DNA of 64,000 nucleotides from Patescibacteria group bacterium (lineage in GTDB: Bacteria > Patescibacteriota > Patescibacteriia > Magasanikbacterales > GWA2-37-8): NCBI GenBank assembly GCA_041649475.1, contig JBAZNA010000001.1, forward strand, positions 197,022 through 261,021, given 5' to 3'. Below, in pieces: positions 4,063 to 57,000 of this stretch; within the stretch, counting starts at the first letter, position 1, and every line of letters starts with the position of its first letter. Both the position numbers and the translations under genes were made by a program. Below the pieces are notes generated by a model. That model was given only the letters and a program-made list of their open reading frames with translations. It searched no databases and was not told the DNA's origin.

Positions 4063-4614
4063 CTAGAATTTCACTTGCACGTTTTCCTTTTCCGCCGCAT
4101 CCGCCTGGAAGAAATCGTATTTTTTGAAATTCATCATGCCGGCAAAAATATTTGTCGGGAAGACCTGAATTTGGGTGTTGAAGTCGCGCACGTTGCCGTT
4201 GTAGAAGCGGCGGGAGGCCTGAATTTTATTTTCCGTATCGCTAATTTCACCTTGTAATTGCAAGAAATTCTGATTGGCTTTTAAGTCCGGGTAATTTTCA
4301 CTGACGGCAAACAAGGTTTTTAAGGTGCCTGATAATTGATTTTCCGCTTGTTCGCGTTCAGCCATTGAACCGCCTTTGGCCGACATAGCCGCGGTTCTGG
4401 CTTCAGTTAATTGAACCAAAGTGTCGTGTTCATGGGTCATGTAGCCCTTTACCGTTTCCACTAAATTCGGAATCAAGTCATAGCGGCGTTTCAATTGGAC
4501 GTCAATATCGCTAAAGGCCTCATCCACGCGGTTTTTTGACTTAATTAAACCGTTGTATATGGCTATAATCCAAAAAACGATCACGGCCACTATTGCCAAA
4601 ATTACCCAAAGCAT
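4063..4614 (-). CDS. lemA: LemA family protein
   Basis: 183 aa with an N-terminal TM helix followed by a LemA-like helical domain; canonical lemA-htpX pairing. Confidence 0.75.
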   Translation of the reverse strand: MLWVILAIVAVIVFWIIAIYNGLIKSKNRVDEAFSDIDVQLKRRYDLIPNLVETVKGYMTHEHDTLVQLTEARTAAMSAKGGSMAEREQAENQLSGTLKTLFAVSENYPDLKANQNFLQLQGEISDTENKIQASRRFYNGNVRDFNTQIQVFPTNIFAGMMNFKKYDFFQADAAEKENVQVKF

Positions 4615-6034: not shown

Positions 6035-7066
6035 ATGCAATCTAAACTGCAGAAATTAAAAACCGAAGCCCTGCTGGCGATAAAATCCGCAAAAGATAAA
6101 TTGGAAGTTGAGGCCTTGGAACAGAAATTATTCGGCCGCAAGGGCGGAGAGATGACGGATATCTTGAAAGGCATAAAAGATTTGAGCGAAGATGCAAAAA
6201 AAGAAATCGGGCAATTGGCCAATGAAGTGAAAAAAGAAATTGAAAACGCGCTGGCCGCAAAAAAACAAGAGGTTTTGTCAAAAAGTTTTGCCGGCGCCTT
6301 GGAAAAAGAGCGAGTGGATTTAACCCAGCCGGCTTTGCCGCATCAAGAACGCGGGCATCTTCATCCGGTGTCAGTAATTCAAAATCAGTTGGAGGATTTA
6401 TTTGCGTCAATGGGTTTTATGGTTTTAGACGGTTCGGAATTGGAAAGCGATTATTATAATTTTTCAGCGGTAAATATTCCGGAAGATCATCCGGCGCGCG
6501 ACATGCAGGATACTTTTTATATTAAAAACCATCCGGATTGGGTGATGCGAACCCACACTTCTTCAATGCAGGTGCGGGGAATGCAAAAATACGGCGCGCC
6601 GCTTCGGGCGATTATTCCGGGCAAGTGTTACCGGAATGAAGCCACCGATGTCAGGCATGAACACACCTTTTATCAAATGGAGGGGTATGTTGTTGATAAA
6701 AATATCAACTTCGGGCACATGAAAGCGGTTTTGGAAACCGTGGCCAAAAATTTGTACGGCGCGGAAACCCAGGTTCGGCTGCGGCCGAAGTTTTATCCGT
6801 TTGTGGAGCCGGGCGTCAACGGCGAAGTGACTTGTTTTTTGTGTCATGGCAACGGTTGCCGGTTGTGTAAAAACAGCGGCTGGCTGGAGATTTTTGGCGC
6901 CGGTATGATTCACCCCAATGTTTTAAAAGAAGCCAATATTGATTCGAAAATTTATTCCGGTTTTGCTTTTGGCTTTGGTCTCACCCGTTTGGTGATGCTT
7001 AAATACGGCATTGAAGACATCCGCCTGCTCCAAAGCGGGGAGATGAAATTTTTAGAACAATTTTAA
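6035..7066 (+). CDS. pheS: phenylalanine--tRNA ligase alpha subunit
   Basis: Class II aaRS motifs: FYPFVEPG, EIFGAGMIHPNVL. Confidence 0.9.
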   Translation: MQSKLQKLKTEALLAIKSAKDKLEVEALEQKLFGRKGGEMTDILKGIKDLSEDAKKEIGQLANEVKKEIENALAAKKQEVLSKSFAGALEKERVDLTQPALPHQERGHLHPVSVIQNQLEDLFASMGFMVLDGSELESDYYNFSAVNIPEDHPARDMQDTFYIKNHPDWVMRTHTSSMQVRGMQKYGAPLRAIIPGKCYRNEATDVRHEHTFYQMEGYVVDKNINFGHMKAVLETVAKNLYGAETQVRLRPKFYPFVEPGVNGEVTCFLCHGNGCRLCKNSGWLEIFGAGMIHPNVLKEANIDSKIYSGFAFGFGLTRLVMLKYGIEDIRLLQSGEMKFLEQF

Positions 7067-7084
7067 CTTTCTTTCACACAGAAT

Positions 7085-9532
7085 ATGCTTATCTCTTTTA
7101 ACTGGTTAAAAAAATACGTCAAGTTACCTGATTCGGTTAGTGCCGAGGATGTAGCTGAAAAATTAAAGCAAAGCACGGTGGAAATTGAAAAAGTGGCCAG
7201 TCGCGCCAAGGATTTGGAAAATATTGTAGTTGGAAAAGTTGTGTCTTGCGATAAACATCCGAATGCCGATAAATTACAGGTTTGCAAAGTCAGCGTCGGC
7301 AATGAAGAAGTGGAAGTTGTTTGCGGAGGCAGTAATGTGAAAGAAGGAATGCTGGTGGCGCTGGCAAAAGTTGGCGCCAAAGTGCGCTGGCATGGAGCCG
7401 GGGAGTTGGTTGAGCTTGCGCCAACAGAGATTCGCGGCGTGAAATCATTCGGGATGATTTGCGCGTCAACTGAAATCGGTCTGGCTGACATGTTTCCTTT
7501 AAAAAGCGAAAAAGAAATTTTGGATTTGAGCGGCGTGAAAGCAAAGCCGGGCGCGCCTTTAAACAAAGCGTTGGGTTTGGATGATGCGGTTTTAGAAATT
7601 GATAATAAATCTTTGAGCAACCGGCCCGATCTGTGGGGGCATTACGGCCTGGCGCGTGAAGTGGCCGCGTTATATAAAAAGGATTTAAAAGCATACGAGG
7701 TCAAGAAAATAAAATCGGGCAAGGGCCTGAAAGTGAAAGTAGAAATTGAAGATAAAAAGTTGTGTCCGCGGTATATGGCCGTGGCCGTCTCGGGAATTAA
7801 GGTGAAAGAGTCCCCGGAGTGGCTAAAGAAAAGTTTGTTAGCAGTGGGCCTGCGACCAATAAACAACATCGTTGATATCACCAATTATGTGATGATGGAT
7901 TTGGGTCAGCCCATGCATGCGTTTGATGCCAAGGTTTTATCTGGCGATAAGAAACAGGCCGCGATTGTGGTGCGGCGTGCGAAAGACGGCGAAGAATTCG
8001 TTACTTTGGATGAACAGAAAAGAAAATTGGATTCGTCAATGCTTATGATTGCCAATCCGGAAAAATCGTTGGCCATTGCCGGCGTAATGGGCGGGATGGA
8101 AAGCGGAATTAATGCCGGTACTGATACTATAATTTTTGAATCCGCCAATTTTGATGCTTCATCAATAAGAAAAACGTCTACTAAATTGGGTTTGCGCACT
8201 GATTCATCGGCTCGTTTTGAAAAAAGTTTGGATCCGAATTTGTGCGTGTCGGCTTTAAGCAAAGCCGTCCAATTGGCGCTGGAATTAAATCCCGGCGCCG
8301 GTGTAGGCGGTAATATTGCCGATGAAGCAAATTTTCATCTTAGCACGGGTCCAATAGGATTTGGCCTGGAATATTTGAAGAAAATTGCCGGAGTGGAAAT
8401 TTCCAAAAAAGAAGCGGTAAGCATTTTAGAACGATTGGGTTTTGCGGTCACCGGTAAAGGCGATGAAATGAAAGTAAAAATTCCCAGCTGGCGCGCCACC
8501 AAAGACATCTCTCTTCCCGAGGACTTGGTTGAAGAAATTGTGCGTATTTATGGCTATGAAAATATATTGTCTGCGATGCCGACGTTTCCGATAAACCCGC
8601 CGGAAGAAAACAAAGTGCGTAAACTGGAAAGACAAATTAGGGATTTGCTGGTAAAAGAAATGTCATATACGGATATGTATAATTATTCTTTTGTCAGTCC
8701 GCAGATGATTGCCAAAATGAATGATGATGTTAAAAAATATATTGAACTTGATAATCCAATTTCGCAGGAACGGCCGTATGTGCGCCGGCATTTAATCACT
8801 AACCTGTTGGAAAATATTTTAAAAAATATTGATAATCATCCCACTTTGCGTTTATTTGAAATCGGTAAAACCTTTATAAGTGAAAAGCCGGGGCAAAGAA
8901 CAATGGCCAACAATGACGATCTGCTTCCGCGCCAGGACACCTGGCTGACAAGTGTGTTTGTGGAAAAGAAAAATGCGGCGCCGTTTTGGCAGGCACGCCG
9001 GGTAGTGGAAAATATTCTGGGCGATTTGGGGCAAAATTTTGAAGTGAAGGTGCCGAAAGAAATTTATCCGTGGCAGCATAAAGCGCGCGTGGCCAGAGTA
9101 ATGGTTGCCGGAGAAGATGTGGGTTCGGTTTATGAACTTAATCCGGCCGCGGGAGCCAACTTAGGTTTAGAGTGGAGCGTGGGCGTGGCGGCGTTAAACA
9201 TTGATAAGCTGGCAATGCTGCCTGTGTCTGACAAAAAATATAAACCACTGTCAGAATATCCGGCCATAGAACGGGATTTGGCGATTTTGGTGAAAAAAGA
9301 AGTTTCACACGGTGAAATTATTTCAGCCCTGGCGCACACTGATCCGATTTTAGCATCTGTGGATCTGTTTGACGTCTATGAAGGAGAGAACATCGGCGCC
9401 GGTTACAAAAGCATGGCTTATCATTTTGTCTATCGCGACCTTAAGCGAACCCTTACGGCCGGAGAGGTTGAAAAAGTGCACAGTAAAATTTTAAAAATTC
9501 TTCAGGAAAAATTTAAAGCGAGCGTGAGATAG
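7085..9532 (+). CDS. pheT: phenylalanine--tRNA ligase beta subunit
   Basis: 815 aa with N-terminal tRNA-binding domain, B3/4 and B5 domains and a C-terminal FDX-ACB domain; directly follows pheS. Confidence 0.9.
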   Translation: MLISFNWLKKYVKLPDSVSAEDVAEKLKQSTVEIEKVASRAKDLENIVVGKVVSCDKHPNADKLQVCKVSVGNEEVEVVCGGSNVKEGMLVALAKVGAKVRWHGAGELVELAPTEIRGVKSFGMICASTEIGLADMFPLKSEKEILDLSGVKAKPGAPLNKALGLDDAVLEIDNKSLSNRPDLWGHYGLAREVAALYKKDLKAYEVKKIKSGKGLKVKVEIEDKKLCPRYMAVAVSGIKVKESPEWLKKSLLAVGLRPINNIVDITNYVMMDLGQPMHAFDAKVLSGDKKQAAIVVRRAKDGEEFVTLDEQKRKLDSSMLMIANPEKSLAIAGVMGGMESGINAGTDTIIFESANFDASSIRKTSTKLGLRTDSSARFEKSLDPNLCVSALSKAVQLALELNPGAGVGGNIADEANFHLSTGPIGFGLEYLKKIAGVEISKKEAVSILERLGFAVTGKGDEMKVKIPSWRATKDISLPEDLVEEIVRIYGYENILSAMPTFPINPPEENKVRKLERQIRDLLVKEMSYTDMYNYSFVSPQMIAKMNDDVKKYIELDNPISQERPYVRRHLITNLLENILKNIDNHPTLRLFEIGKTFISEKPGQRTMANNDDLLPRQDTWLTSVFVEKKNAAPFWQARRVVENILGDLGQNFEVKVPKEIYPWQHKARVARVMVAGEDVGSVYELNPAAGANLGLEWSVGVAALNIDKLAMLPVSDKKYKPLSEYPAIERDLAILVKKEVSHGEIISALAHTDPILASVDLFDVYEGENIGAGYKSMAYHFVYRDLKRTLTAGEVEKVHSKILKILQEKFKASVR

Positions 9533-10149: not shown

Positions 10150-10497
10150 ATGGGAATGCGCGCGAAGGACTGGGAGGCGGCCCAGGCCGTTTTCTTGAAA
10201 GAGGCCGGTGCCGACCCTGACCCCGACGATTCGTGGACCGTAGTTCGGTCGCCGAGTTTGCAGGAGCTTCTGCTGGCAAAGGAGCAGGAGTTCCCGGTTG
10301 AGCTCGAGCTCTCCGACGGCCGCAAGATGACCGTGTTCGTCGAGGATATCAAGGACCCCGACGCGCACGGCGAAGTGGAGGTGTACGTAATGTACGTCGC
10401 CAACGGCAACCGGCGCCGGCGGTACCTGCACTTCACCCCCGACGTCTACGAGCCCAGGGTCAACGTCTACCCCGAGCCCAAGGAATCCGTGGGCTGA
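10150..10497 (+). CDS. hypothetical protein, compositionally foreign (G+C-rich cassette a)
   Basis: 115 aa (MGMRAKDWEAAQAV...) with a GGAAGGAG RBS 7 nt upstream and G/C-ending codons. Followed by terminator GCCCAAGC-ATCT-GCTTGGGC + T7 (10521..10548). No motif recognised. Confidence 0.5.
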   Translation: MGMRAKDWEAAQAVFLKEAGADPDPDDSWTVVRSPSLQELLLAKEQEFPVELELSDGRKMTVFVEDIKDPDAHGEVEVYVMYVANGNRRRRYLHFTPDVYEPRVNVYPEPKESVG

Positions 10498-13500: not shown

Positions 13501-14055
13501 AAGGACTTGCCCAATCAGCCGCGCAACAGCCGGGTGGTGGTGGGCGGATTTATTGATTCCACCAAGAAAAAAATTACCAGAAGCGGCAAGGCGATGATGT
13601 TCGCCAAAATTCAGGATCTAAGCGGTGGGTTGGAACTTTTGATTTTCCCGCGCACCTTTGAAACCACCAAAGATGTTTGGCAAGAAGGAAAACCGGTTTG
13701 CGTGGTGGGCAAGACATCAGAAGAAGAAGGGGATGACAAACTGTTTGTGGACCGGGCGTATATTTTAACCAAAGAAAACGCGGCTACGCTGGCCATGCAA
13801 ATGAATATCAATCAGGGTGCGCCGTCTTTGCGCCAGTATGCGCCGAATTTTGTCAGTCCGGAAGAAGAGGGCTTTGAAGTTGTGGTCAGCCCGGCCAAGA
13901 TAAAAACCGAATCAGATAATATTAAAAAAATTCTAGGGAGGTATCCGGGCGATAAGGTGGTGTATATAAAAGTGGGGAATAAAAAAATAAAAAGCGGCTA
14001 CCGGGTGGACGGCTGCACAGAGTTGAAAGAAGAACTTAAACAATTTTCCAATTAG
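10588..14055 (+). CDS. dnaE: DNA polymerase III alpha subunit
   Basis: 1155 aa. PHP domain HVHSHYSLLDG at the N-terminus, polymerase core, and a C-terminal OB-fold region. Confidence 0.9.
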   Translation: MPDFVHLHVHSHYSLLDGLPKIDELVKHAKSLGMTALALTDHGNMYGAIEFYERCQKEGIKPIIGMEAYLAPGSRFDKNQNDKYYHLVLLALDYTGYRNLMKLASLAHLEGFYYKPRVDKELLKQYHEGLVASSACFGGEIPWILRKEDNFEKAKKVALEYEEIFGKGNFYLELQDLPGLEGQMEMNTKLIKLSQDTGVPLIVTRDVHYLKPEDAEAQDILTCIRDGRTLDEPNRQTMNAVDCSMASVKEIAGRFKHIPEALENTVKIAERANLVLELNKWHFPPLELPVGQTADSYLREQVYERLPKLLQITEEVKKRVDYELEIIAKKGYSPYFLTVADYVQYARDHGIAETTRGSAAGSIVSYAIGIVTVNPLYFKLPFERFLNPFRPSPPDIDADFADDRRDDMIAYVTQKYGADKVAQIITFGTMMARGAVRDVGRALGYTYSFCDQISKMIPFGAQGFHMNIAKAMELEPDLKKLYDQNPQAHRLLDLAQKVEGCARHTSIHAAGVVISPTPLTDFTPVQRETGGERITTQYEMHAVEAAGVLKMDFLGIRNLSILGHAVEIIEKTTGQKIDIYKLPWDDKKTYEMLARGETIGVFQLSGSGMTRYLKELKPASIFDIMAMVALFRPGPMESIPEYIKRKNHPELIEYLDPRMENYLDQSLGLIVYQDDVLLTAINLAGYNWEEADKFRKAMGKKIPEEMAKQKEKFFKGCREFGHLSEAKINTLWERIEPFAAYGFNKAHACSYGVVAYQTAYLKANFPVQYMTAILIAESGDIDKVPEIIHECERIGIKVLPPDVNESFKNFAMISPEDGSEPHIRFGLNGIKNLGEHIAEVIYRERKEHGTYKDLQDLLTRVNDKDLNKKSLESLAKCGALDCFGHDRGLLLANTDNLLGFVRQMHEKTQSNQNSLFSGTTIDLSAKVQLNPAPLADEADKLIWEKELLGLFVTSHPFKYFEKIMNGVLTPIKDLPNQPRNSRVVVGGFIDSTKKKITRSGKAMMFAKIQDLSGGLELLIFPRTFETTKDVWQEGKPVCVVGKTSEEEGDDKLFVDRAYILTKENAATLAMQMNINQGAPSLRQYAPNFVSPEEEGFEVVVSPAKIKTESDNIKKILGRYPGDKVVYIKVGNKKIKSGYRVDGCTELKEELKQFSN

Positions 14056-15037
14056 GGTCGGCCTTAAGGTTCCGCCAATTTGTAAAATCTTCTTTAAGGG
14101 TATGATAATATCCGGCCACGGCAATCATGGCCGCGTTGTCCATGCAGTATTTTAAGTCCGGATATTTTATGTTGCTGCCGGAAAGTGCATCGGCGAAGGT
14201 TTCCCGCAGTTTTAAATTTGCGCTCACGCCGCCGCCAACCACGATTGTCTTCGGCCGGAATTCTTGCACCGCTTTGACGGTTTTAGAAACCAAAACATCA
14301 ACAATGGCCTGTTCCAAACTGGCGCAAAAATCTTCCAGTGTAATTTTTTTATTGATTTTATGATCTCTTAACCAATAAAGAGCCGAGGTTTTCAGTCCGG
14401 CAAAACTAAAATTATAATTATCATCATTTATCATCGGCCGCGGAAATTTTATCGCCTGCGGATTTCCGTTTTTTCCCAGTTTAGAAATTTGCGGACCGCC
14501 CGGATAGGGGAGATCAACCAGCTTGGCCACCTTATCAAAACATTCTCCGGCTGCGTCGTCACGGGTCGCGCCCAGTAGTTTATATTGCCTGGGTTTTTTT
14601 ATTAAAATTAATTCGGTATGGCCGCCGCTCACCACCAAACACAAAGCTGGAAATTCTATCTTGGAGTCGGCCGCGATCTCCGTAGAATAAATATGGCCTT
14701 CAATATGATTTACTGCCACCACCGGAATTTTTAAAGCGTACGATAAAGTTCTGGCCGCTTCCACGCCTACCAATAATCCGGTAATCAGCCCGGGTCCGGC
14801 CGTGACCGCAATCGCATCCGGCTGGGGCTGGTTTTCCAAAATGAGTTCAATCAGCGGCGTAATTTTTTCCGCATGCGCCCGGCCGGCGATTTCCGGCACC
14901 ACCCCGCCGTATTTTTTGTGAATGTCAATTTGCGAAGCGGTTTTTTCCGATACCACAACGCAACCTTGGCTTGAACAATTGAGCAAGGCCACCGAAGTAT
15001 CGTCACAGGAACTTTCTATACCAAGAATAAGCATATT
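14036..15037 (-). CDS. tsaD: tRNA N6-adenosine threonylcarbamoyltransferase TsaD
   Basis: MLILGIESSCDDTSVAL is the canonical TsaD/Kae1 N-terminus, with metal-binding His motifs. The ORF track extends the start to 15151, but that 38-aa extension runs into the G+C-rich cassette and is judged spurious. Confidence 0.8.
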   Translation of the reverse strand, partial: NMLILGIESSCDDTSVALLNCSSQGCVVVSEKTASQIDIHKKYGGVVPEIAGRAHAEKITPLIELILENQPQPDAIAVTAGPGLITGLLVGVEAARTLSYALKIPVVAVNHIEGHIYSTEIAADSKIEFPALCLVVSGGHTELILIKKPRQYKLLGATRDDAAGECFDKVAKLVDLPYPGGPQISKLGKNGNPQAIKFPRPMINDDNYNFSFAGLKTSALYWLRDHKINKKITLEDFCASLEQAIVDVLVSKTVKAVQEFRPKTIVVGGGVSANLKLRETFADALSGSNIKYPDLKYCMDNAAMIAVAGYYHTLKEDFTNWRNLKADPNWKIV

Positions 15038-15117
15038 TTTCGCAATACCGAATTTCCTATTTAGAAACTCGGTATTACGGAGGAAGACGTGTGTCTTCCT
15101 CGACTCCTTATGTCTCC

Positions 15118-15576
15118 TTATGGCCAGTTGAGTTCCGCCGGCATAGGCCAATCACTGGCGTCGAAACTCACGAATCCCGGCGTCCATTTGAACTTGGACG
15201 CTTCTCCCGGACCAGAAGTGCCCGTGAGCTCGTGAATTTTTTTAGAACTGAGCACCTTGAGCGGCGACATCTCTTTCGGCTCCGGGCTATCGATAGTGGC
15301 CTGGAGAGAATAACCAATCCCTTTCGTGGGATTGTAGAGGAGAAGTTGCGTGGCGACTTTTGCCCGTTTGTGCTCAAGGCAGTCCCACACCATCTTCAAG
15401 AGCGGCTTCTCCACTACGACCACAGGTTCATTATCCTCTGCAGTCAGAGCTGGGAATACACCCATCAGTCCGTGTTCGATCAGCAGTAGGTAACCGTACC
15501 GAAGCTGCCATCCGCTCAGATCCTTTTCGAAGATGCTTCCCAGCGCCGGTCCTTGTTTGCTCATGGTTTCCTCCAA
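15118..15576 (-). CDS. hypothetical protein, compositionally foreign (G+C-rich cassette b)
   Basis: 152 aa (MEETMSKQGPALGSIF...). RBS GGAGG, then 5 nt, then ATG. Starts 21 nt after the 3' end of tRNA-Met and is followed by a perfect hairpin GAGGAAGAC-GTGT-GTCTTCCTC (15080..15101). Confidence 0.5.
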   Translation of the reverse strand: MEETMSKQGPALGSIFEKDLSGWQLRYGYLLLIEHGLMGVFPALTAEDNEPVVVVEKPLLKMVWDCLEHKRAKVATQLLLYNPTKGIGYSLQATIDSPEPKEMSPLKVLSSKKIHELTGTSGPGEASKFKWTPGFVSFDASDWPMPAELNWP

Positions 15577-15597
15577 GATCGAGATCGTTTTCCCGAG

Positions 15598-15671
15598 TGT
15601 CAGGGGAGGGAGTCGGACCCTCGACCTTAGGGTTATGAATCCTACGCTCTTACCAACTGAGCTACCCTGAC
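15598..15671 (-). tRNA. tRNA-Met (anticodon CAT; elongator versus initiator not resolved)
   Basis: Hand-folded cloverleaf: acceptor GTCAGGG/CCCTGAC, D-arm GCTC-AGTTGGTAA-GAGC, anticodon loop TTCATAA, T-arm GAGGG-TCCGACT-CCCTC. TTGACT-N17-TATACT promoter upstream on the minus strand. Confidence 0.8.
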
Positions 15672-15755
15672 ATTACCGAAAGTATACAAAAAAAAATGGC
15701 TTTAGTCAATGTTGATTTTGGCTCTGTTCTGTGATAGTGTAAATTCAATAATTTT

Positions 15756-16796
15756 GTGATTATGTTGGAAAAAAGGCCTTATGAAAACTCAATACCGCTT
15801 GTCGGCCAGAATCGGCCGTCTTTTGCTGTGGAAAAAGTTGTTTTGGGGCAGAAAAGAGAAGCCAGGGAGTGTTTGAGACGCTGTTATGAATATCGCGACA
15901 GCAAGGGTGAATTTATCGCCCAGGGGTTGGTTGATGTAAATGCCAAACCGTTTCCTATTGAATCGCCGGATCCAAAGCTTGGATTTTACAACGGCTGGAA
16001 GCTGGAGTCCTTTATTATTATATCCAAAGAAGGAAAAAAGCGTGACGTATTAAAAAATTTAAACAAAGACGGCCAGCCGCTGCCGGATATAGTCATAGAC
16101 GATTTGGTGGAGCAATGTGGGTATATCAATGAACCAAAAAAGATGATAGTCGTGCCGCCGCTTAAGTCCGCCAAAGAAATTGAAGAGTTGGTGCATGAAA
16201 ATATGCACGCACAACAGGATAATAACAGCCATTTTAAACCACTTTTGGATTTGTATGAATGGTCGGAGATGGATGCCGGTGCGCTTGGCGAGGCGGAAGT
16301 GGAAAAACGGTTGCGTGAAATTTTGCGGGCGGTTTCCCATTTTGGCGAAGCAAAAAAGTTTGCCAAGCAATTGAAGGATGATGTTACTTTTTTTGAAGGC
16401 GCACTGCGGTCTGGCAAAGTGCCGGCCTCTGAAGTGCCAAAGATGATGGAAGAGCGGGTCAAACGGATACAAAAAATGTTTTCTTTACCAATGCAGATAT
16501 GTGAGATAGACGCCGAAGACGGGGGATTAAAAGGGTTGGAAGAAATTAAAGAAACCATAGGCGCTGATTTTTTGGCGCCGTTTATCTGGACACCGTCAGT
16601 GATTGCCGACACCCCGCACTCCAGAGCGCTGGACGCGGAAGAAGAAAACCGCTTTGAGGTGTTGGGAACATCTGATTTATACGAGCAAAAGAAAAAATTT
16701 GAGCACGGCAAGCCGTCAGTCACCAGTGTGCCGGCGATTGTCAAAATGTATCTTGAATCCGTGGGCGCTTTGCCGGCGCCATGGGAAAAAGGTTGA
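15756..16796 (+). CDS. hypothetical protein
   Basis: 346-aa ORF with host-like composition; no recognisable motif. Confidence 0.45.
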   Translation: MIMLEKRPYENSIPLVGQNRPSFAVEKVVLGQKREARECLRRCYEYRDSKGEFIAQGLVDVNAKPFPIESPDPKLGFYNGWKLESFIIISKEGKKRDVLKNLNKDGQPLPDIVIDDLVEQCGYINEPKKMIVVPPLKSAKEIEELVHENMHAQQDNNSHFKPLLDLYEWSEMDAGALGEAEVEKRLREILRAVSHFGEAKKFAKQLKDDVTFFEGALRSGKVPASEVPKMMEERVKRIQKMFSLPMQICEIDAEDGGLKGLEEIKETIGADFLAPFIWTPSVIADTPHSRALDAEEENRFEVLGTSDLYEQKKKFEHGKPSVTSVPAIVKMYLESVGALPAPWEKG

Positions 16797-18073: not shown

Positions 18074-18400
18074 TCACAGGACCACTTCTTCGTAGTAGTC
18101 GGCCCGCTCGTGGCTAGCGTAGGGGCTTGATTTGGCATCCTTGAGCGCAGCTGCGGCGAACGGTTCGTCTATGGTGACCTCGGCAACGTTCTCGCACTTG
18201 GCGATCAACAGCTGACAACCATCACAGCCGAATCCGGTCACGGTTGCCAGAACCAGCGCCTCCTTGATCTTCGGTACCCGGCCCTCTTTGCGGATGGCTT
18301 CGGCCACATCGGCCGCGTTTTCTCCACCGCAGTCGGTCCAGAACTTGAAAACAACCTCATCACCCTTGCGCACACTAACGAGTCCGGTTTTTCCGTGCAT
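18074..18400 (-). CDS. hypothetical Cys-containing protein, compositionally foreign (G+C-rich cassette c)
   Basis: 108 aa with four Cys (C..., GCDGC, KC). AAGGAGG RBS with 7-nt spacer begins immediately after the TAA stop of the upstream FAD-oxidase gene. A hairpin terminator follows. Confidence 0.5.
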   Translation of the reverse strand: MHGKTGLVSVRKGDEVVFKFWTDCGGENAADVAEAIRKEGRVPKIKEALVLATVTGFGCDGCQLLIAKCENVAEVTIDEPFAAAALKDAKSSPYASHERADYYEEVVL

Positions 18401-25928: not shown

Positions 25929-26282
25929 TTAGGTGTCAACCGTCTCCACCGGAGGGTTGGGCACTGTTGGCCCCCAGAGAGGGACGAATTCCGTGCTCTG
26001 GAAGTTCTTGCGACACAACTCTTCAAGACCAGGGGTATCGCCATCGTAGATGACCCGGGAGGCCGTAATCACGGCCCGATCCTGCTTGGACCCGAACCCC
26101 ATCTGGGCGGCCAAGTTGTAGGCGTTCCTAGCCGAAGGGGCTTCACCGTTTTTTTGCACTTCCGCGCGAATTGCGTCAGCAAAACGCTTGGTGAGATTGC
26201 CGCCGCGGCCAACCACAACTTTCATCAAAACCACGTCGCCTCGGAAAACGATGACCATTCCCGGAACAGCAGTCGTGGACAT
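25929..26282 (-). CDS. hypothetical protein, compositionally foreign (G+C-rich cassette d)
   Basis: 117 aa (MSTTAVPGMVIVFRGDVV...). AAGGAGG RBS with 7-nt spacer, TTGACA-N17-TAAAAT promoter at 26319..26347 (minus strand), and a hairpin plus T-run downstream. Confidence 0.5.
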   Translation of the reverse strand: MSTTAVPGMVIVFRGDVVLMKVVVGRGGNLTKRFADAIRAEVQKNGEAPSARNAYNLAAQMGFGSKQDRAVITASRVIYDGDTPGLEELCRKNFQSTEFVPLWGPTVPNPPVETVDT

Positions 26283-29580: not shown

Positions 29581-29922
29581 CTAGCCGGCGGCGGAAGCGG
29601 CGATGGGGGCGATCTTGGGCTGGATGTCGATCACGGGGATCGGCTCGGGCAGACCGTCGAAGCGCTGGCGGAGCCAGTCGATCTCGGGCTCCGAGGCCTC
29701 GCCCATGAAGATCTCGATGTAGAACGTCCCCCTGATGAGGCCCTCGTACTTCAGCTTGAAGCCGGGGATCTCGTCGTCGAAGTCGGCCTTGTGCGGCCTG
29801 TTGACGTACCTGTTGAAGTCGTTGAGCGAGCAGTACCTGACGCTGCCGTCCACGAACTGGATCCGTACGGCCCTTGTCTGCAAGGTCGTGTCCGGGAACG
29901 TCATCAGCTTCTGGATCGGCAT
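29581..29922 (-). CDS. hypothetical protein, compositionally foreign (G+C-rich cassette e)
   Basis: The ORF track extends to 29994 with a TTG start. An internal ATG at 29922 (MPIQKLMTFPD..., 113 aa) is preceded by AAGGAGAGGGAG and is preferred. TTGACA-N17-TACCAT promoter at 30038..30066 (minus) and terminator CTTCCCT-CCCC-AGGGAAG + T7 at about 29470..29500. Confidence 0.45.
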   Translation of the reverse strand: MPIQKLMTFPDTTLQTRAVRIQFVDGSVRYCSLNDFNRYVNRPHKADFDDEIPGFKLKYEGLIRGTFYIEIFMGEASEPEIDWLRQRFDGLPEPIPVIDIQPKIAPIAASAAG

Positions 29923-41931: not shown

Positions 41932-42312
41932 ATGACACGGGTCATGAGTTTGATGGCTTTCTACGCGACTTATCGTCTCTTAAAGGTCGCGTACCGTGCG
42001 ACCGAGAGACAGCTTAGGCTATTCTTCGTCCCCAAGCCGGGGTGCGAGGGGGCCTACGAGGTGGATGAGCAAATCTTCGCCAAGGTTCGGACGCTCATCG
42101 TCAATTCCAGGTCGTTTCAGACCGAAATCTACCCGCTGAACGCCAGTGACGTGGGGGAAGATTTCCGCCTTGGCGACCAGGATTTCACCGGCTCGGTGAT
42201 GGTCTGGCTGAAGGAAGTAGATCCTTTAGACGCACTGTTTACCGACAGAATCAAGGAGGTTGTGTTCGGAGAGGAGAAAGAGTATCGCTTTCAGTGCGGT
42301 TCCCGCAACTAG
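41932..42312 (+). CDS. hypothetical protein, compositionally foreign (G+C-rich cassette f)
   Basis: The ORF-track start at 41875 would lie inside the -10 box. The in-frame ATG at 41932 sits 8 nt after AAGGAGG (MTRVMSLMAFYATYRLL..., 126 aa). Confidence 0.45.
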   Translation: MTRVMSLMAFYATYRLLKVAYRATERQLRLFFVPKPGCEGAYEVDEQIFAKVRTLIVNSRSFQTEIYPLNASDVGEDFRLGDQDFTGSVMVWLKEVDPLDALFTDRIKEVVFGEEKEYRFQCGSRN

Positions 42313-55838: not shown

Positions 55839-56504
55839 ATGGCGACCGCAAAACAGATTCCGTTTTTGATGGGAAGGTTGGTGGAGCATCAGTTTTACTT
55901 CTGTGCTTTGTCCACCGCAAGCGCCACGTGGGCGAGCCAAAACCCGAAAGACGCCATTGCCTTGTGCGTGGCGGCGATCGAGAATCGCCAAAAGGAGCGT
56001 CAGTCCGACCCGGCGCCTTCGCCACTCCTCACCTTGGTCGGTGCCGTCGTGATCTGGCTGGCCGTGAGGTTCGTTGCCAGTGAACACCTGGTGAAGAATA
56101 CCGAGAAGAACGCGCCGGTGAAGATTTCCTACATCTTCGATAAGGTCACCGTGTGGTTCCAGGGCAAGATCGAGGAGCGGGTCGAGGGCGAGATGGCTCT
56201 GTGCTGCCATACCCTGAACTCCGACTCGGACGATAACCTCATCATCAACCAGCTCGGCGGCGAGACCAAGGCCGAGACCGCCCTTGCCGAGGTCTTTGCC
56301 TGCTTGGAGAAGCAACCCAACGGCGAGGATGGTGCGCTACTCACTAACGGCCACGCGAACATCTTCTATGTTCGCAACACCGAAGGTGTGTTGTGCGTGA
56401 TCCAAGTGATCTGGCGCGGTGACGGTTGGACCTTCTACACCCGTTCGGTCGGTTCTCTGGACACATGTACCGAGGGCCGCCGGGTGTTCTCCCGCGCCGC
56501 ATAG
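55839..56504 (+). CDS. hypothetical Cys-containing protein with one central hydrophobic segment, compositionally foreign (G+C-rich cassette g)
   Basis: 221 aa (MATAKQIPFLMGRLVEHQFYF...), AAGGAG RBS, terminator GCCCCGCC-N9-GGTGGGGC + T7 at 56521..56555. Confidence 0.5.
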   Translation: MATAKQIPFLMGRLVEHQFYFCALSTASATWASQNPKDAIALCVAAIENRQKERQSDPAPSPLLTLVGAVVIWLAVRFVASEHLVKNTEKNAPVKISYIFDKVTVWFQGKIEERVEGEMALCCHTLNSDSDDNLIINQLGGETKAETALAEVFACLEKQPNGEDGALLTNGHANIFYVRNTEGVLCVIQVIWRGDGWTFYTRSVGSLDTCTEGRRVFSRAA

Positions 56505-56594: not shown

Positions 56595-56600
56595 TAACCC

Positions 56601-56950
56601 ATTCATAGCGGATGATCGAGCCGACTTAGTCGGCTAGGAAAGTCCGAACACCCAAGATGGCAGTGGGTAACGCCCACCGCTACGGTGGCAACGCCGTGGT
56701 TGGGAAAGTGGCACAGAGACAATTCTAACCCCGACAAGCTCGGGGTAAAAGGTGAAAAGTGTATGGGGGATTTGGTTCTCGAGACCAAAGCTACTATACT
56801 CGGCTGATAGCAATATCAGTTCGTGCTAAACCCTGCCTGGTGCAAGAGCAGCGTTTCGCGGCGCAAAACCGCGGTTCGAAAAGTTCGCTCGCTAGAACGC
56901 GTTAGCAATAACGCGTCCAGATAAATGATCGTCACCTCGCCCCATTTTTA
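56601..56950 (+). ncRNA. rnpB: structured ncRNA with RNase P RNA (bacterial type A)-like conserved blocks; candidate rnpB with an atypical catalytic-domain 3' half
   Basis: No ORF over 72 aa. Blocks in canonical order: P3-like hairpin GCCGAC-TTA-GTCGGC, then AGGAAAGTCCGAAC (cf. AGGAAAGUCCGGGC), GGCAG (P7 5'), P8-like GTGGG-TAAC-GCCCAC, P9-like ACGGTG-GCAA-CGCCGT, P12-like CCCCGA-CAAGC-TCGGGG, then AAGGTGAAAAGTG (cf. GGGUGAAAGGGUG), CTGATA-GCAA-TATCAG, CTAAACCCTGCCTGGTGCAAG (cf. GGUAAACUCCACCCGGAGCAAG), and ACGCGTTA-GCAA-TAACGCGT. Three GCAA tetraloops. The expected P4 3' strand (ACAGAAnCCGGCUUA) is not found. Confidence 0.45.
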
Positions 56951-57000
56951 AACAAAATGGTGCGGAGCACAAAATTCGGCTTATAGCTATGAATAAAAAA

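Follow-up and report, generated by a model that had tools for sequence, protein, structure and literature searches.

A putative horizontally acquired gene between tRNA-Met and tsaD at a variable junction in a Patescibacteria genome

Results and Discussion

Why does a small G+C-rich open reading frame (ORF) stand between a tRNA-Met gene and tsaD, when the two genes directly adjoin each other in 25 related loci? The locus lies in a 64,000-nt stretch of a Patescibacteria genome (GenBank assembly GCA_041649475.1, contig JBAZNA010000001.1, positions 197,022 to 261,021), which we call the window; coordinates below are window positions unless another locus is named. On the minus strand, the order is a sigma-70-like promoter, tRNA-Met(CAT), a GGAGG Shine-Dalgarno (SD) sequence, the G+C-rich ORF, a 9-bp hairpin, a 17-bp hairpin, and tsaD. 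We consider it probable that a 562-bp segment with one horizontally acquired gene was inserted into a fused tRNA-Met-to-tsaD unit, and that the gene is co-transcribed with its neighbors, with transcription reading through the hairpins into tsaD.

The ORF interrupts a unit of tRNA-Met and tsaD

The tRNA-Met(CAT) gene, in which CCA is not encoded, was located by ARAGORN at 15597..15671 of the minus strand and matched Rfam RF00005 with 67 bits (15598-15671). A native sigma-70-like promoter precedes it on the same strand (TTGACT-17-TATACT, 15681..15709), agreeing with the consensus at 10/12 positions in our promoter scan; a first-pass annotation of this DNA, made from the letters alone, had already pointed to this promoter. 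TTGAC(T/A)...TAnAAT boxes occupy the same position 5' of orthologous tRNA-Met genes in relatives. By alignment, the tRNA-Met is clearly a native orthologue of the relatives' tRNA-Met and does not match the phage tRNA-Met of a viral contig discussed below (L177); a phage-derived tRNA gene was rejected on this ground. Its T-loop reads TCCGACT, with a C where U55, nearly universal in tRNA T-loops, is expected. The C is identical in all three assemblies of the locus; TTC is found in the T-loop of six orthologous tRNA-Met genes of relatives, in the phage tRNA-Met of L177, and in the remaining junction sequences of relatives that were compared.

At the other end of the locus, tsaD is a native gene of 332 aa without an SD sequence (14036..15034, minus strand; Pfam TsaD, 2.2e-92). 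Alignment with relatives places its true start at ATG 15034. Public gene calls start it at TTG 15151 (371 aa), so that it overlaps the end of the ORF and spans both hairpins. No promoter of its own was found: the scan returned no minus-strand promoter-like site between 15680 and 15035.

When GTDB genomes and JGI metagenomes were scanned with TsaD, the organism fell in Candidatus Magasanikbacteria, with the closest relatives at 66-75% TsaD identity (L089 at 75% over a partial-length match, then L096 at 70%). The first-pass annotation had proposed a comparison of the tRNA-Met-to-tsaD interval. In 25 non-redundant related Magasanikbacteria loci, a same-strand tRNA-Met lies within 25 nt (≤25 nt) of the tsaD start. 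The gap between tRNA-Met and the tsaD ATG is 1-17 nt (L012-L057; L018 4925-5010, L028, L013) and often 1-9 nt; in L018 the junction reads '...CCCTGACAC-t-ATG AAA ATC CTT GGA ATT GAA'. Because tsaD abuts tRNA-Met in these 25 relatives, we take the fused unit to be the ancestral state. Such close spacing implies a conserved tRNA-mRNA co-transcript, and with the ATG hard after the tRNA, the relatives' tsaD mRNA would come from tRNA 3' processing and be almost leaderless. The tRNA-Met is a likely substrate of TsaD for N6-threonylcarbamoyladenosine (t6A) modification.

In the window, the ORF fills this junction, and its composition and translation signal are atypical. Its G+C content is 0.537 and its G+C content at third codon positions (GC3) is 0.617, compared with a GC3 of 0.461 ± 0.069 for the 42 long ORFs of the window, only one of which is higher. 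The 32-nt leader (15565..15596, minus strand) carries the GGAGG at 15574..15570, 5 nt 5' of the ATG; the first-pass annotation had also named GGAGG as the ribosome-binding site. An SD sequence is absent in 10/15 neighboring gene calls, including dnaE, pheS, and pheT, as well as before the tsaD ATG. The ORF appears foreign because its GC3 and strong SD are unlike those of native genes. It appears to be an insertion because tRNA-Met abuts tsaD in the 25 relatives and a hidden Markov model (HMM) of the protein family described below found 0 homologues in the 160 related tsaD loci. The first-pass annotation had likewise proposed a foreign insertion at the tRNA-Met/tsaD junction, to be given up if relatives carried the same ORF with host-like composition; the GC3 contrast and the absence from all 160 loci bear this proposal out.

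The inserted gene belongs to an undescribed protein family

The inserted protein-coding gene occupies 15118..15564 of the minus strand, with its TAA stop at 15120..15118, and encodes 148 aa. The maximal ORF (15118..15576) has 152 aa from a TTG, which is the length first reported. The ATG at 15564 is likely the better start: it follows GGAGG by 5 nt, the deposited record ('hypothetical protein WC526_01065, Patescibacteria group bacterium') begins there as well, and homologues have matching N-termini. The length of the protein is thus probably 148 aa. A repeat search also found a tandem direct repeat over the stop codon (CATAAGGAG-A-CATAAGGAG, 15104..15122, minus strand), with two exact 9-nt copies 10 nt apart.

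A word-indexed protein search matched the product to itself alone. An exhaustive phmmer search of 1.84 billion cluster representatives returned 180 proteins at E ≤ 1e-3, 48 of them at E ≤ 1e-10 (best E 3e-18), mostly 125-150 aa long and 30-43% identical to the ORF product, with the best at 43%. Two sharp motifs stand out in the family alignment, HGLMGxFPA towards the N-terminal end and PFxWAPGL towards the C-terminal end; the ORF product retains the invariant G35, P38, and W127 and the near-invariant H31, F37, A39, F125, and G130. The family HMM scores the ORF at 150 bits and finds a single copy in the window. AlphaFold2 with the family alignment produced a confident model (predicted local distance difference test score [pLDDT] 90.8, predicted template modeling score [pTM] 0.84). 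Given the homologues, the conserved motifs, and this model, we conclude that the ORF is a real gene and not an orphan, and that its family, which has no name, comprises about 180 clusters.

The protein had no match in Pfam, NCBIfam, PHROGs, or PADLOC, a Foldseek search of the model against PDB and BFVD returned nothing at E ≤ 1e-3, and a PDB profile search came back empty. Likewise, 61 family members gave 0 Pfam matches and no meaningful match in PHROGs. The product is predicted to be a soluble alpha/beta protein of 148 aa in an undescribed family. Some homologues are fused to an N-terminal Cys-rich domain, for which Pfam and PDB likewise offered no match.

The junction gains different genes in different relatives

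Comparison across the clade identifies the tRNA-Met/tsaD junction as a hot spot of gene gain, because relatives have unrelated material there, of at least seven kinds. Between the two genes lie a 194-aa protein without known family (L019, L105), a G+C-rich 132-aa protein without known family (L021), a RelB/YafQ pair on the opposite strand (L022), a 297-aa ORF without known family (L024), a response regulator (L118), a YbaK-type tRNA_edit gene (L119, L133), or a 181-nt G+C-rich spacer; short structured spacers occur as well. L019 and L021 each have a terminator and then a new promoter between the inserted gene and tsaD; the promoter of L021 ends 9 nt before the tsaD ATG.

L096 has a G+C-rich insert of 106 nt at the junction, and the tRNA-Met 3' end together with the trailer hairpin is repeated directly around it over 41 nt. 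This arrangement is the classical signature of tRNA 3'-end integration. The first-pass annotation had invoked tRNA 3' ends as integration hot spots, and both the variety of contents and the duplicate in L096 agree with it for this junction.

Partial copies of tRNA 3' ends lie 95-1200 nt 3' of the intact tRNA in L096 (566-753), L092 (6598-6744), L006 (4520-4600), L090 (3560-3645), and L001 (5700-5920). About 100 nt of G+C/purine-rich spacer stands before each copy; in L092, L006, and L090 an inverted T-arm copy also precedes it and could close a long stem. These copies may be what is left of integrative elements, or they may form a separate small element; an Rfam search of L096 returned nothing.

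The family recurs downstream of tRNA genes

All taxonomically named family members come from Patescibacteria metagenome-assembled genomes (MAGs), and one family locus, L180, is Bacteroidota-like or island-like. IMG/VR contains one homologue, 35% identical, on a viral contig of 195 kb with a G+C content of about 52% (L177, IMGVR_UViG_3300017987_000003), which is the sole contig with the family motif among 2.9 million viral contigs. A tblastn search of 50,697 phage records and 72,556 plasmids gave no match, so that direct similarity pointed to no phage or plasmid source beyond this one contig. L177 also contains a tRNA cluster, a transfer-messenger RNA (tmRNA; tag GENMPLQEAA), and a tRNA-like gene with a four-base anticodon (ttca) (4504-4579, 6714-7069, 7216-7962), and it encodes RecA, an ARPP-1 protein, and an intein-like helicase fragment.

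The family gene is solitary, and its neighbors differ in every context examined: among other settings, it follows atpC or rplA, is flanked by two DUF2238 paralogues, or adjoins Phage_30_3, an AcrVA2-like gene, or an MNT/HEPN pair. A conserved partner gene was sought beside family members and none was found, and no integrase adjoins the family gene in the homologue loci examined. Where the flanks were folded, in six homologue loci, the gene stands as a complete unit that has its own strong SD and a terminator made of a hairpin and a T-run. L006, L090, and L092 share a closely similar terminator, AACCCAC..GC(T)TCGGTGGGTTTT, just 3' of the family gene in different genomic contexts, which suggests that gene and terminator travel as one unit in these three loci.

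In five of 12 independent loci, a co-oriented tRNA precedes the family gene by ≤500 nt (binomial p ~2e-4 at a generous 5% background). These are the window (tRNA-Met, 32 nt), the phage contig L177 (tRNA-Asn, 38 nt, inside the tRNA/tmRNA cluster), L176 (tRNA-Leu, 202 nt), L001 (tRNA-Leu, 471 nt), and L092 (tRNA-Trp, 482 nt). A tRNA-Gln precedes the family gene in L006 and L090 at a distance of 1.5-2.5 kb, with variable genes between. In L092, tRNA-Trp stands on one side of the family gene and a 79-aa ORF, and on the other side is an exact copy, 18 nt long, of the 3' end of that tRNA. The homologues of L001 and L092 are GC3-rich relative to their hosts. From these contexts, the family appears to behave as recurrent cargo of small tRNA-proximal islets. 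L176, a Patescibacteria-like contig, also has a group I intron match of 63 bits, above the gathering threshold, at 1543-1832.

Because five of the 12 loci are tRNA-adjacent, one of them in a jumbo-phage tRNA/tmRNA cluster, and because one family gene neighbors an AcrVA2-like gene, the family could conceivably be tied to tRNAs by function, for example as a tRNA-binding or tRNA-protecting factor that counters anticodon nucleases. We regard this as speculative and would give it little weight. If it were true, a protein with a fold unmatched in PDB or BFVD would be co-expressed with a tRNA and the t6A enzyme TsaD.

How the gene may have arrived

The insert lies directly 3' of tRNA-Met, is atypical in composition, and is absent in relatives, all of which are features of tRNA-associated islands; two further features of such islands, a recombinase gene and a distal tRNA 3' repeat, were looked for and not found. 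Integrase and recombinase Pfam families were absent among the gene calls within ±10 kb. In a gapped search of the window for a tRNA 3' duplicate, the best match was TAAGG..TCGAGG..CCTCC, covering hairpin 1, which was reached by 44/1000 shuffles for the 3' half and by 241/1000 for the whole tRNA; as positive controls, the same kind of search recovers the 41-nt repeat of L096 and the 18-nt repeat of L092. On these figures, hairpin 1 with the spacer is a marginal candidate for a decayed tRNA T-arm copy (attR) and was set aside. A 10-nt repeat flanking the tRNA and the ORF (TTCGGTAATG / TTCGGTATTG) was also rejected as a target-site duplication: by our estimate, about 10 such repeats are expected by chance in 800 nt, and the repeat search lists many others of the same size. 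The first-pass annotation was therefore right in reporting neither an integrase nor a duplicated tRNA 3' segment. Its picture of a cassette at the tRNA 3' end holds as far as an insertion there is concerned; mobile integration is not borne out, with no attachment-site (att) repeat or integrase detectable.

The insert may be what is left of a tRNA-targeting integrative element: a recombinase would have integrated the element at the tRNA-Met 3' end, after which the integrase and the distal att site were lost and one cargo gene remained. We rate this as a serious possibility that nevertheless falls well short of being the expected one, and by analogy with L096 and L092 a decayed integrase-type island is a plausible mechanism of insertion. 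L096, at 70% TsaD identity, has its tRNA-Met 3' repeat around an insert at the same junction; in L092 a homologue lies between tRNA-Trp and the exact copy of that tRNA's 3' end; and partial tRNA 3' copies follow tRNA-Gln (L006, L090) and tRNA-Leu (L001) upstream of homologues. The statistical excess of family genes just downstream of tRNAs points the same way. Against it stand the insignificant tRNA 3' match in the window (44/1000 and 241/1000 shuffles) and the absence of an integrase, both within ±10 kb of the insert and beside the family gene in the homologue loci examined.

An unlikely alternative is that illegitimate or homology-assisted recombination, with a phage tRNA cluster as one possible source, brought the gene in, and not site-specific integration. 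The lack of an att repeat in the window would fit, as would the L177 homologue, which lies 38 nt downstream of tRNA-Asn in its tRNA/tmRNA cluster on a contig whose G+C content (~52%) is close to that of the insert (54%). Against this source stand the single viral contig with the family motif among 2.9 million, the empty tblastn search of phage records and plasmids, and a tRNA-Met in the window that is clearly native and not phage-like.

Hairpins and proposed expression

Two hairpins fill most of the 83-nt spacer between the ORF and tsaD. Hairpin 1 (15080..15101, minus strand) has the perfect 9-bp G+C-rich stem that the first-pass annotation described, with a 4-nt loop, and folds at -13.7 kcal/mol (z -5.3). 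Hairpin 2 (15041..15079, minus strand) abuts it, with a 5-nt loop and a folding energy of -22.6 kcal/mol (z -8.2). The inverted repeat reported here at first pass was correctly located at the tsaD start; its 11 bp are in fact part of an uninterrupted 17-bp stem, and stems of this length are rare in the window. The spacer as a whole folds at -40.4 kcal/mol (z = -8.05), and 0/200 shuffles were as stable. The 17-bp stem ends 6 nt 5' of the tsaD ATG (15034), with AAAAAU and then the tsaD AUG directly 3' of hairpin 2; CGUAAUAC stands directly 3' of hairpin 1. Both hairpins thus have the G+C-rich stem-loop of a terminator and neither has its U-tract, and a terminator scan of 15041-15101 returned no terminator-like site. 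Because the 17-bp stem is uninterrupted in sense RNA alone (-22.6 vs -12.1 kcal/mol in antisense), we infer that the hairpins act at the RNA level in the sense orientation.

Several other identities for the hairpins were tried and rejected. They are not a repeated element, such as a repetitive extragenic palindrome (REP) or a miniature inverted-repeat transposable element (MITE), as both are single-copy in the window. A match of hairpin 2 to the inverted tsaD 5' coding end (ACTCGGTATT) was equalled or beaten in 239/300 shuffles. Nor do they represent a conserved 5' structure of tsaD that replaces the tRNA: in 65 relatives in which no tRNA abuts tsaD, the region 5' of the gene is generally without structure (median z -0.17, compared with -5.9 in the window).

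We propose the following course of events. The 562-bp segment (15035-15596) would have entered the native tRNA-Met-to-tsaD transcription unit, bringing a gene with its own strong ribosome-binding site and neither a promoter nor a canonical terminator. The tRNA-Met promoter would then drive a co-transcript of tRNA-Met, the 148-aa ORF, and tsaD, from which processing at both ends of the tRNA, 5' and 3', would release an mRNA whose 32-nt leader bears the SD. The two adjoining hairpins, which are probably not terminators, would probably stabilize the 3' end of the inserted mRNA or mark a processing site or boundary before tsaD, and tsaD would be translated after read-through across both. We favor co-transcription as most likely because the tRNA promoter is the only minus-strand promoter-like site able to serve the ORF (15760-15035) and no terminator-like site lies in between. 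The missing U-tract appears to be a real difference, because homologue loci and most of the other G+C-rich small ORFs of the window have a hairpin and T-run, a terminator type that is the norm in this genome.

Several points weigh against this proposal. No near-isogenic empty site fixes the boundaries of the insert, as the relatives share at most 75% TsaD identity; scans of genomes and metagenomes for closer relatives reached only 70-75%. The three assemblies with the locus are 100% identical and so provide no independent confirmation or polymorphism. No att repeat was detected, and no integrase lies within ±10 kb. The unstructured upstreams of the 65 relatives mean that the hairpin is not a conserved requirement. 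A 17-bp stem only 6 nt before an AUG without an SD should hinder tsaD initiation unless it is cleaved. Finally, co-transcription and read-through are deduced from promoter and terminator calls made by consensus scans, which may not fit the Patescibacteria phylum.

The same observations raise the question of whether the hairpins are instead a factor-independent terminator of the tRNA-Met/ORF transcript, with tsaD under an unrecognized promoter of its own. The high stability of the spacer would suit a terminator, L019 and L021 set a precedent with a terminator and new promoter between the inserted gene and tsaD, and promoter rules in Patescibacteria are little known. We still find this rather improbable. 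Neither stem has a U-tract, and AAAAAU-AUG follows; terminators with a hairpin and T-run are standard both in this genome and in homologue loci. Moreover, the stem stands just 6 nt from the ATG, and the scan gave no -10/-35 match from the ORF start to tsaD.

Two remaining readings deny the gain of a gene altogether, and both are effectively excluded. Under the first, the gene would be native and ancestral here and repeatedly lost in relatives; that every taxon-named family member is a Patescibacteria MAG, from the same phylum as the window, speaks for it. It is nonetheless very improbable, given the absence from 160/160 related tsaD loci, the many precise deletions that abutment of tRNA and tsaD within 25 nt in 25 loci would demand, the atypical GC3 and SD of the ORF, and a best homologue that is just 43% identical. 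The second, that the G+C-rich stretch is a structured RNA or chance ORF, recalls that G+C-rich islands in A+T-rich genomes are often RNA genes, as the RNase P RNA of this window (56600-56999) exemplifies, but it has a negligible chance of being right and is already refuted by the strong protein-level conservation and confident fold, and in an Rfam search of 14900-15800 down to E ≤ 10 only the tRNA matched.

Comparison with known systems

The locus can be set beside several known arrangements. In tRNA-adjacent genomic islands, insertion at tRNA 3' ends is integrase-mediated. The junction resembles these in having foreign DNA directly 3' of a tRNA that is absent in relatives, cargo that varies by lineage, and att-like tRNA 3' duplicates in L096 and around the L092 homologue. 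It differs in that the window insert has 562 bp and one gene, with no detectable integrase or att duplicate, and in that it splits a tRNA-mRNA unit and would depend on the tRNA promoter. Phage 'morons' are single extra genes of deviant G+C content between resident genes, defined in prophages and normally equipped with their own promoter and terminator. The window gene is likewise single, small, deviant in composition, strong in its translation signal, and located between two conserved neighbors; unlike morons, it lies in a cellular chromosome, and scans of the insert gave no promoter or terminator of its own.

Co-transcription units of tRNA and mRNA are known, such as the thrU-tyrU-glyT-thrT-tufB operon of E. 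coli. Processing at tRNAs also underlies mitochondrial 'tRNA punctuation' (PMC5716156). The relatives' tsaD, whose mRNA 5' end would have to arise from tRNA 3' processing, is comparable to both, and the inserted gene of the window would be released likewise. The tsaD of the window differs, as it follows a hairpin pair and is no longer beside the tRNA. With integron cassettes, the locus shares a promoterless ORF followed by an imperfect inverted repeat, served by an upstream promoter. It is unlike them in having no intI within ±10 kb, no array, and hairpins without attC cores; neither RYYYAAC nor GTTRRRY is present in 15035-15117.

In sum of these likenesses, the locus is a fairly ordinary small horizontal gene gain at a tRNA-adjacent variable site, and it does not overturn current understanding; what is undescribed is the protein family. 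It offers a comparative case in which the gain of one gene split the conserved unit of tRNA-Met and tsaD in a Patescibacteria genome that is reduced. The family folds confidently in prediction and is sited just downstream of tRNA genes with statistically unusual frequency, which merits a systematic survey. The locus also points to a set of small G+C-rich genes with strong SD sequences across the genome; in a mostly SD-less host, these would be a convenient system for studying foreign-gene expression in bacteria of the candidate phyla radiation (CPR).

Other features of the window

The inserted ORF is one of seven small ORFs of 108-221 aa with G+C contents of 0.54-0.64 and GC3 of 0.62-0.97, in a window of 43.5% G+C. 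They lie at 10150-10497(+), 15118-15564(-), 18074-18400(-), 25929-26282(-), 29581-29922(-), 41932-42312(+), and 55839-56504(+). Each has AAGGAGG or GGAGG 5-8 nt before its ATG, and none of the seven matched Pfam. The other six are moron-like: a TTGACA-17-TAxxxT promoter-like site was found for 4/6 and a terminator with a hairpin and T-run for 5/6. The ORFs at 18074 and 25929 are distant paralogues, with 38% identity over 58 aa.

Between the divergent tRNA-Met and tRNA-Glu genes lies a 346-aa ORF (15756-16796, plus strand) with an HExxH motif and a weak match to DUF6782, a putative metallopeptidase. The region between the divergent tRNAs measures about 100-180 nt in L013, L014, and L019, and L012 has a different protein there, with an HEFGH motif. 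Directly downstream of the G+C-rich 221-aa ORF at 55839-56504, a bacterial RNase P RNA of class A was found at 56600-56999 on the plus strand (175 bits).

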